From Octopus vulgaris (taxonomy: Eukaryota): a stretch of DNA of 64,000 nucleotides. The notes beneath the pieces were generated by a model, which saw nothing but the letters and a program-made list of their open reading frames with translations, was not told the DNA's origin and searched no databases. Shown one piece after another: positions 25,936 through 29,212 of the stretch; the stretch's first letter is position 1, and each line of letters starts with the position of its first letter. The DNA lies in NCBI GenBank assembly GCA_951406725.2, contig OX597841.1, positions 25,730,001-25,794,000 of the forward strand, in the 5' to 3' direction. The translations under genes were made by a program, and so were the position numbers.

Positions 25936-26299
25936 CAGTATCGCCCGGCGTTGCTCAGGTTTGTAAGAAATAACTATAAAGCATTTTTAGAGAGTTATAG
26001 CCAAAAAATAGAAAAAAATGATGGTAAATTTTTTTTGAGAGTTAAAACAGGTGGAGTTGCGTCCCCTAGACGGTCTGTGGTTTGGGTTTCTCATTCTCGA
26101 CCCCATGTCGAATTTATCGATTTTTCAGAACTGGGGAACTTTTCAAAATTTTCGCTGCGTTAGTTTTGAATTATGACATTGGGCTATGTATGTGTCAAGT
26201 TTCATCAGAATCGGTTGAAAGCCGTGGTCAGAGTGAGGGTACGAGAAAACAGACACACAGAAACACGCACAGACAAACTGCCGTTTATATAGAGAGAGA
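25932..26299 (-). mobile_element. Non-autonomous Helitron-like element
   Basis: Reverse complement of 48486-48865. Confidence 0.75.
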
Positions 26300-26334
26300 T
26301 ATATATATATACATATATATACATAAATAAATAT

Positions 26335-26535
<201 letters not shown>

Positions 26536-26544
26536 TATATATAC

Positions 26545-26601
<57 letters not shown>

Positions 26602-26647
26602 CACATATATATATACATATATATATATACATAAATATATATATTAA

Positions 26648-26780
26648 TCAAGATTAATCAGCCGAAATTGCGAGGATGATCCGGTTCTTGACTGAAGATT
26701 GAAGGCTTCGAATGTCCCGCCCGTGTTTTTTTATCGTCTTCTAAATGTTTTGCGTTCTTGTCCCAGTTTGTATTTTTTTA
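26648..26780 (+). mobile_element. 5'-truncated copy of the permuted-hammerhead element
   Basis: Near-identical to the reverse complement of 9068-9199; embedded in (TA)n. Confidence 0.85.
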
Positions 26781-26781
26781 C

Positions 26782-26890
<109 letters not shown>

Positions 26891-27324
26891 TACATATATA
26901 TATATACATATATATAATATCATTTCGCTAAGGTATAACGCTACTAATAACCTAGTATTATAGCTCAGTATACATATAATTTAGAACAAAGTCTTAGTCG
27001 AGTACAAAGAGGTAATGAGACACTGAAATGACAGAGGAACAAAAAAGTCACGTTATGAATTGTATTAGCTTACAGCTGTTTCGAGAATGTGACGTACTAA
27101 TATTCAATTACGGGTGCATTGAATCTTAGGGCAGGTACAAGCTCTAAGATGTCCACACTGGAGAAAATAAGCGTTTAAACGATTTAAATAAAGTGAAGAT
27201 TTCGGCCTTGGAGATGAAGATCGAACAGGACATCCTGTTGAATTAAATGTTAAGCTCATTAAATATAACATTTGATCCCTTGTTTTCTTTATTCAAAATT
27301 CAGACAGAACTTATGGGATGACCG

Positions 27325-28374: not shown

Positions 28375-28555
28375 GAGGGCGCGTGGCTTAGTGGTTAGGG
28401 CATTCGGCTCATGATCGTAAGGTTGTGAGTTCGATTCCTTTAAAAAACACCGCACCGCACCGCACGAAATTACACGGAAAGACTCTACGTAGCAAACTGA
28501 TTTGCAAGAAATAGCAGCTAAATTTCCCTCGATAATGACATGGTGGATAACAGGA
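28375..28555 (+). mobile_element. tRNA-derived SINE (degenerate, internally deleted)
   Basis: A box TGGCTTAGTGG, B box GAGTTCGATTCC; downstream AAATAGCAGCTAAATTTCCCTC. Confidence 0.65.
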
Positions 28556-29044: not shown

Positions 29045-29212
29045 TTACTCTTTTACTTGTTTCAGTCATTTGACTGTGGCCATGCTGGAGCACCGCCTTT
29101 AGTCGAGCAAATCGACCCCAGGACTTATTCTATCGGTTTCTTTTGCCGAACGGGGACGCAAACACACCAGCACCGGCGATGTTGTGGGGGACAAACACAG
29201 ACACAAACATAT

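Follow-up and report, generated by a model that had tools for sequence, protein, structure and literature searches.

In Octopus vulgaris, genomic copies of a non-coding repeat show a sharp upstream edge in their 5′ ends, and this edge coincides with the bond at which a predicted hammerhead ribozyme within the repeat would cut its transcript. Judging from the sequences of the copies, it is likely that the edge marks where the hammerhead cut the RNA before it was reverse transcribed into a (TA)n site. The window is a stretch of 64,000 nucleotides (GenBank assembly GCA_951406725.2, contig OX597841.1, positions 25,730,001 to 25,794,000, forward strand) and contains a long copy of the repeat at 9.1 kb and a short copy at 26.6 kb. 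Positions in the repeat are numbered from the first base after the predicted cut, 0 being 26648 (+) and 9199 (-) of the window.

Two copies of the repeat in the window

The short copy and its flanks comprise the following features.

26288..26647 (no strand): TA-rich microsatellite, 5′ flank and insertion target (sequence)
26648..26783 (+): short copy, family A; runs from 0 through the common 3′ end and has exactly the extent of the predicted 3′ cleavage product (sequence, alignment, blastn)
26648..26653 (+): stem I 5′ strand, pairing with 26686-26691 (six complementary pairs, two changing on both sides between families)
26659..26671 (+): stem II 3′ strand, GAAA core and stem III 3′ strand; their partner strands are absent from the short copy (family comparison, covariation)
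26672..26676 (+): predicted k-turn, with a variable 3-nt bulge and GA; the A/G difference is at 26674 (copy comparison)
26686..26698 (+): stem I 3′ strand, then the CUGAAGA core (family comparison)
26784..26918 (no strand): TA-rich microsatellite, 3′ flank (sequence)

By blastn, 26648-26806 (+) matches 9199-9041 (-) at 96.2 % identity over 159 nt. Both blastn and pairwise alignment open the homology at 26648/9199, and 9199 (-) is the first base past the AUC triplet, which occupies 9202-9200 of the minus strand. This agrees with the initial annotation, which had placed the start at TCAAGA, the first nucleotides 3′ of the predicted AUC cut, directly after a (TA)n tract; the TA-rich sequence does adjoin position 26648, and the copy sits between TA-rich tracts on both sides. 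The two copies align from 0 through the common 3′ end, with differences at four of 139 positions (+26, +72, +83 and +129). Only the first of these lies inside the ribozyme region, at the third bulge base of the predicted k-turn (26674, A to G), as had been noticed from the sequence. At +26, G is present in 86, A in 22 and C in four of 112 family A copies; since G is the majority state of the family, it is a subfamily polymorphism and not a private change of the 26.6-kb copy. Likewise, the 26.6-kb copy need not descend from the 9.1-kb copy, because sampled copies elsewhere are equally close to it (2 %).

Two cautions had been attached to the 26.6-kb copy. The first is the alignment ambiguity from the AA/AATC flank, for which the alternative is a start at -4 in a copy whose TCTC, spanning the cut, is shorter by one TC; such a contraction was found in none of 91 copies with upstream sequence, therefore a start at 0 is much more likely. 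It was also said that one copy may be a coincidence, and by itself this copy is not above chance; the population of copies is.

Structure of the repeat element

The element is a non-coding repeat with a unit of about 700-900 nt and insertion structures of Penelope type. Exact anchors at +37..+62 and +107..+129 have 2,127 and 2,380 matches genome-wide, which are lower bounds on a copy number of more than 2,000. All copies stop at the same 3′ end, near +130, beyond which lies an AT-rich tract, and the opposite end is variable, which fixes the transcribed strand. Full units carry a partial repeat of the 3′ end in front, and some have an inverted 5′ copy or a 30-40-nt tail of the type also present on the 9.1-kb copy (9004-9030). 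Partial tandems, inverted 5′ copies and 30-40 bp tails are listed among Penelope-like insertion features (PMC8557442); with the microsatellite target, the layout of the repeat is that of a non-autonomous Penelope-like element. The family A/B region was present in three further organisms when four contig sets were compared.

The inverted double copies (L070, L139, L189, L196, L096 and L143; D type L388 and L412) have switch points mostly at +8..+35, inside the ribozyme, and it is the inverted arm that bears the tail. Upstream partial repeats often begin at +71..+84 (family A loci L085, L088, L114, L119, L146, L192 and L122), as do, at +71..+74, three short copies from the first round (L181, L195 and L207). 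It is possible that these starts represent a second fixed RNA 5′ end, maybe a transcription start inside the repeat.

The genome has numerous GIY-YIG elements, with frames of 781 aa; loci such as L357 and L362 presumably belong to a Neptune-like clade, based on the zinc-finger linker. In a search for an autonomous partner sharing the 3′ end, 30 GIY-YIG loci showed neither similarity to the repeat nor the motif, and 29 of the 30 matched one ORF with a C-terminal endonuclease. ORFs upstream of motif copies included none that was informative. Among 13 window ORFs compared with Pfam, a single match was obtained, unrelated to the element.

The long copy lies on the minus strand and is divided by a later insertion.

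9004..9030 (-): short tail past the 3′ TA tract; in full copies the repeat unit opens with this sequence (copy comparison)
9067..9313 (-): family A long copy, 3′ part (copy comparison)
9137..9271 (-): complete predicted ribozyme (alignment, folding, family comparison)
9320..9773 (no strand): later insertion, flanked by identical 6-mers at 9314-9319 and 9768-9773 (blastn, sequence)
9774..9998 (-): upstream part of the long copy, split from the 3′ part by the insertion (copy comparison)

The insertion consists of a short repeat found elsewhere in the window and a decayed coding remnant, which we take to be of LINE type. The motif was considered as the 3′ UTR of this remnant (9.45-9.76 kb) and this was rejected, the remnant being a later insertion that is absent from other copies. 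The short interspersed repeat, at 9319-9446, matches 40053-40182, 3148-3209, 5809-5858, 29051-29100 and 51893-51942. Elsewhere in the window, a 523-aa open frame at 16319-17890 (+) has a zf-RVT match (E 3.8e-8) and is a LINE remnant of another kind, and a tRNA-like repeat head, recognized by eye at about 28375-28440 (+), is probably a SINE.

The predicted ribozyme

Within 9137..9271, the upstream elements and the closing helix are placed as follows, all on the minus strand.

9271-9262 with 9146-9137 (-): closing helix P1
9259-9222 (-): hairpin P2
9221-9217 (-): stem II 5′ strand
9216-9206 (-): helix and GA of the k-turn
9205-9200 (-): stem III 5′ strand and AUC
between 9200 and 9199 (-): predicted cut

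Read 5′ to 3′, the long copy has the P1 5′ strand, hairpin P2, the stem II 5′ strand, a helix with GA, the stem III 5′ strand and AUC at the cut; after the cut come the stem I 5′ strand, a 5-nt linker, the stem II 3′ strand, GAAA and the stem III 3′ strand, and finally the 3-nt bulge with GA, its helix, the stem I 3′ strand, CUGAAGA and the P1 3′ strand. The hammerhead core (CUGANGA, GAAA and an NUH cleavage triplet) is present in families A, B, C, D and E, with variation limited to N7 of CUGANGA (A, G or U).

Comparison of families A-C supports the stems. Stem I is 96 % paired, with both-side changes in two of six pairs, and stems II and III are each 100 % paired, with such changes in three of five and two of five pairs. 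P1 is the weak helix (77 % paired, no both-side change), and its two core-adjacent pairs are U-U in family A. Overall, 10 of 38 pairs change on both sides and 90.8 % of cells are paired, compared with at most 51 % and three both-side pairs in slid controls. Ten covarying pairs were reached by 81 of 500 shuffles and the covariation score by none of the 500, three families representing few independent events. The sequences of stems I and III differ again in the D and E types, and the ribozyme region folds strongly (z -3.6).

The order of the blocks is S, G, C, as in type-SGC hammerheads. An uninterrupted block C, with at most 1-2 nt between CUGANGA and stem II, is not present: the strand before GAAA pairs upstream and not with the strand right after CUGANGA, which pairs elsewhere to form P1, a helix that interrupts the core there. 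A stem II formed from four bases five positions after the core, which is possible in family A, was rejected as it is not kept in B or C. The motif thus resembles a type-SGC hammerhead but differs in one defining feature, and its function is predicted. The window gave no Rfam match at the gathering score, as expected for a permuted order. Families A, B and C keep the pattern of the kink-turn consensus, in which a first helix is followed by a bulge of 3 nt, tandem G-A and A-G pairs and another helix; the bulge is variable, and a k-turn is predicted there. In the D type, a different internal loop is found at this place. Read by eye, this type has no P2, and the direct partner of the strand following the core is an upstream strand.

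When 1.19 Mb of loci were scanned with a descriptor, 85 distinct hits were obtained, among them D and E types with unrelated stems, and 7.1 Mb of resampled sequence had none; the scanned loci had been chosen for families A-C, and the resampled null also required the upstream stem II partner. D-type (L078, L107, L027, L135, L185, L195, L271) and E-type (L152, L311) loci are sequence-unrelated repeats carrying the same permuted hammerhead. Because D and E types were met by chance in about 1.2 Mb of flanks, it is likely that the genome holds many thousands of intact motifs.

Distribution of 5′ ends in family A

A histogram of 5′ ends had been set beforehand as the test of the cleavage reading. 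The first 100 listed matches of each of the two anchors on one contig (C1) were taken regardless of their 5′ end, and ends were called by extension against natural copies, giving 100 and 104 records that merged into 155 rows. Hand curation kept 119 first-round copies, 63 with an end and 56 running past -110. This removed duplicate rows and upstream partial repeats, 11 inversion junctions, some of the internal deletions, one member of a duplicated pair and a single end that lay beyond the anchor. Six ends flagged automatically as inversions or deletions were kept, as they abut a simple repeat or the 3′ end of another copy; without them, 29 instead of 34 ends fall at 0..+12. Two earlier DNA searches, biased by the extent of the query, are left out of the rates.

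The ends are not uniformly distributed. Of 103 copies reaching +12, 34 end at 0..+12, compared with one of 69 at -13..-1 (p 4e-8). Ends per base at risk, in the direction of reverse transcription, were as follows.

+68..+106: 0.0013
+37..+67: 0 (0 in 2,387 base-copies)
+21..+36: 0.0022
+13..+20: 0.0094
0..+12: 0.0304
-13..-1: 0.0011
-110..-1: 0.0019

In a Poisson fit with terms for TA microhomology, the rate ratio at 0..+20 is 14, with a likelihood ratio of 99. When the edge was scanned over -30..+30, the best position was exactly 0; -2 came next, 4.1 log units lower, with -1 also about 4 log units worse and +1 8 worse. In total, 42 of 111 copies reaching +20 end at 0..+20 (38 %, with a background of about 4 %), and about 60 % read through. 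The ends begin to rise at +20, the commonest is +9 (eight ends), and just three of the 42 fall at 0 itself. The peak that had been anticipated at TCAAGA therefore takes the form of a band whose upstream edge lies sharply at the cut and which tails off to +20, and not of one peak.

Controls and other families

Exact junctions between (TA)n and the element were counted genome-wide, with 104 at 0/+1, 10 at -3..-1 and 12 at the TATA at -81..-77, the best upstream microhomology site (p 4e-21; 2e-6 when the smaller number of copies at risk is taken into account). The sites at -3..-1 offer more microhomology and more possible starts, yet have only the 10 junctions. From a separate search for TA-flanked copies, whose raw counts are inflated by overlapping TA-tract starts, 28 distinct loci, some of them already in the 119-copy sample, were read by eye: 24 start at 0..+12, none at -1..-9 and four at -10..-15.

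Mean distances are 6.6 % between short copies, 6.5 % between short and long and 6.5 % between long copies, and short copies span all subfamilies. Being as distant from each other as from the long copies, they are not one amplified stub.

In family B (849 exact matches), 12 of 59 scored copies end at 0..+20 and 12 over -110..-1 (ratio 4.0, p 0.001); 71 copies were examined and 12 dropped as inversions, deletions, upstream partials or ambiguous, including two at 0 and one near -8. In the D type (1,099 matches), eight of 67 scored copies end at 0..+20 and 10 over -95..-1 (ratio 3.0, p 0.02); 72 were examined and five dropped, and one end at -1, compatible with 0, was counted as upstream. Family C had been sampled with a query spanning the cut and is left out of the rates. 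The excess is thus replicated but clearly weaker outside family A. A small cluster of ends is seen at -8..-15 (family B L320, L321 and L327, and TA-flanked loci), beside the upstream GA of the predicted k-turn.

Origin of the edge

What the sequences show directly is the common 3′ end, the edge at 0, the conserved core and the covarying stems. The initial annotation proposed that the 26.6-kb copy was retrotransposed from the 3′ cleavage product, and the concentration of family A ends immediately downstream of the cut supports this. It also offered the copy as independent support for cleavage in vivo. That part stands in qualified form: many templates ended at the bond 9200/9199, which is indirect evidence, cleavage being the best and not the only reason for such an end.

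Under the cleavage model, tandem or partial-tandem transcripts would probably self-cleave at the hammerhead. A Penelope-type reverse transcriptase/endonuclease supplied by another element would nick (TA)n DNA, priming would be internal, at the AT-rich tract at +130, and the enzyme would run off after about 130 nt on RNA that begins at the cut. The junction would then shed 0-20 bases as second-strand synthesis finds microhomology with the target, which parallels R2 and would account for the band at 0..+20. Cut template would have been used by about a third of the family A copies that reach +20, and the read-through copies would come from uncut or re-joined RNA. A cut-to-cut monomer closed into a circle may also give copies longer than the unit. 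A ligation scar in such a circle that stopped the enzyme would look alike, and it too requires cleavage. The short copies would be dead ends, because the upstream half of the ribozyme is missing from them.

Of 22 upstream partial repeats, some from the biased searches, seven start at +71..+84. Thirteen of them reach +20; two of these have their end at 0..+20, and the other 11 continue through a second cut site (p 0.08, compared with 38 %). These repeats point to circles, which is suggestive only, as re-priming on another RNA explains partial tandems equally well.

It is unlikely that the edge reflects a transcription start inside the repeat, at 0..+2, from which uncut RNA begins. Penelope transcripts do start inside the upstream repeat (PMC6765202), and a start site would likewise yield a sharp edge. 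There are also loose matches to an initiator and to Pol III boxes near 0..+66 in family A, seen by eye. However, the edge tracks the predicted cut in differing sequence contexts (A/B and D), and runs of 5-8 T at +78 (A) and +56 (D) precede the shared 3′ end, which means that the priming site would be missing from a Pol III transcript. A start site also predicts upstream partial repeats beginning at 0, which the positions given above do not show. Junctions at 0..+3 have no extra G.

Stalling of the reverse transcriptase on folded, uncut RNA, or on a protein bound to the k-turn, is if anything slightly less probable still. The fold is strong, the band lies inside the structured domain and the rate begins rising at +20, as stalling would have it. 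Against this, no ends are found at +37..+67, where the enzyme meets the first helices, and the long hairpin (-24..-60) has few; the fit does not improve when a term is included for the structure that the enzyme is about to meet (log likelihood -124.5 against -125.0), and the window effect stays in place. Neither the position of the edge, at the scissile bond, nor the invariance of the catalytic bases is predicted by stalling.

Least probable of all is a pile-up caused by AT-rich microhomology at the joint with the (TA)n target, or by one amplified short master copy. A TA flank is present on 34 of the 42 short copies, A/T starts (+9, +5 and +2, for example) are preferred, and microhomology does contribute to the fit, with a coefficient of 0.46 per base. 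However, sites richer in it have far fewer junctions than 0/+1, the D type still shows the excess although it is GC-richer after the cut, and the short copies have 15 different end positions and come from all subfamilies. Microhomology is largely refuted as the cause of the edge and is likely to be the cause of the fine structure within the band.

Comparison with known systems

The type-SGC and type-CSG non-circularly permuted hammerheads (Eckert et al., 2023, PMC10085705) share with the octopus motif all core bases, the order of cleavage block, GAAA block and CUGANGA block, a short linker between stems I and II, and a pseudoknotted core. Unlike these types, the octopus motif has its stem II 5′ strand upstream of the cleavage block, a separate helix after CUGANGA that breaks block C (P1, with hairpin P2 in A-C), a predicted k-turn extending stem III, and as its host an animal retroelement with thousands of copies. 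For all hammerheads, that study assumes pairing of the strand after CUGANGA with the strand before GAAA; its main text and one supplement do not mention octopus, molluscs or kink-turns.

Animal non-LTR retrozymes (Cervera and de la Pena, 2020, PMC7229834; Li et al., bioRxiv 10.64898/2026.07.22.740005) are likewise non-coding, hammerhead-bearing units, proposed to be moved by Penelope-like elements, and the octopus unit falls in their reported range of 51-972 bp. Retrozymes have type I hammerheads in head-to-tail arrays, with circular RNAs shown, whereas the octopus family has a permuted, split core in S-G-C order in place of a type I hammerhead per tandem unit, consists mostly of single truncated copies and partial tandems, and is known here from genomic copies. 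No mapping of genomic 5′ ends to the cut was found in the available text of either report.

Naiad-clade Penelope-like elements (Craig et al., 2021, PMC8557442) have the same (TA)n targets and strong 5′ truncation, and also share partial tandems, inverted 5′ copies and 30-40 bp tails with the octopus family. The octopus unit, unlike Naiads, has no coding sequence, and the likeness rests on the insertion layout. That study reports only Naiad remnants in cephalopods, and describes Naiads whose half-cores, spaced 35-50 nt, are matched by none of the hammerhead descriptors. The HDV-like ribozyme of the R2 retrotransposon (Eickbush et al., 2013, PMC3774820) is of a different class; its cut makes the 5′ end of the full element, where the junction is joined through microhomology with the target, whereas the octopus cut lies 130 nt from the 3′ end and yields stubs. 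Internal initiation of priming has been shown for an anole Penelope element; this element could insert in vitro without being cleaved, and none of its RNA reads had an end at the cut (PMC11167929).

In the open literature searched, no paper was found with the wiring of the octopus motif, with a permuted hammerhead placed in an animal retroelement or with a mapping of genomic 5′ ends to a hammerhead cut. Lunse et al. reportedly described hammerhead variants in Penelope-like elements in 2017, which may bear on novelty.

Implications

An edge at the scissile bond across many copies is evidence for cleaved RNA as a germ-line template. It bears on whether and why Penelope-like hammerheads cut in cells, cleavage having been dispensable in the one element rebuilt in vitro (PMC11167929). 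In addition, the edge suggests that a wiring at odds with the block rule of PMC10085705, the only paper found on such permutations, is active. Such wiring would escape the descriptors from which some Penelope clades were concluded to be without a ribozyme.

A wider proposal is made tentatively, with the odds lying somewhat against it: an undescribed split-core, non-circularly permuted hammerhead may be active in the germ line, cutting tandem transcripts into monomers of 700-900 nt that become circles, with both products kept in the genome, since linear RNA would give the 130-nt stubs and circles the copies longer than the unit. If this is true, the partial tandems of Penelope-like elements would be products of rolling-circle reverse transcription, and 5′-end histograms would be a general read-out of ribozyme activity in vivo.
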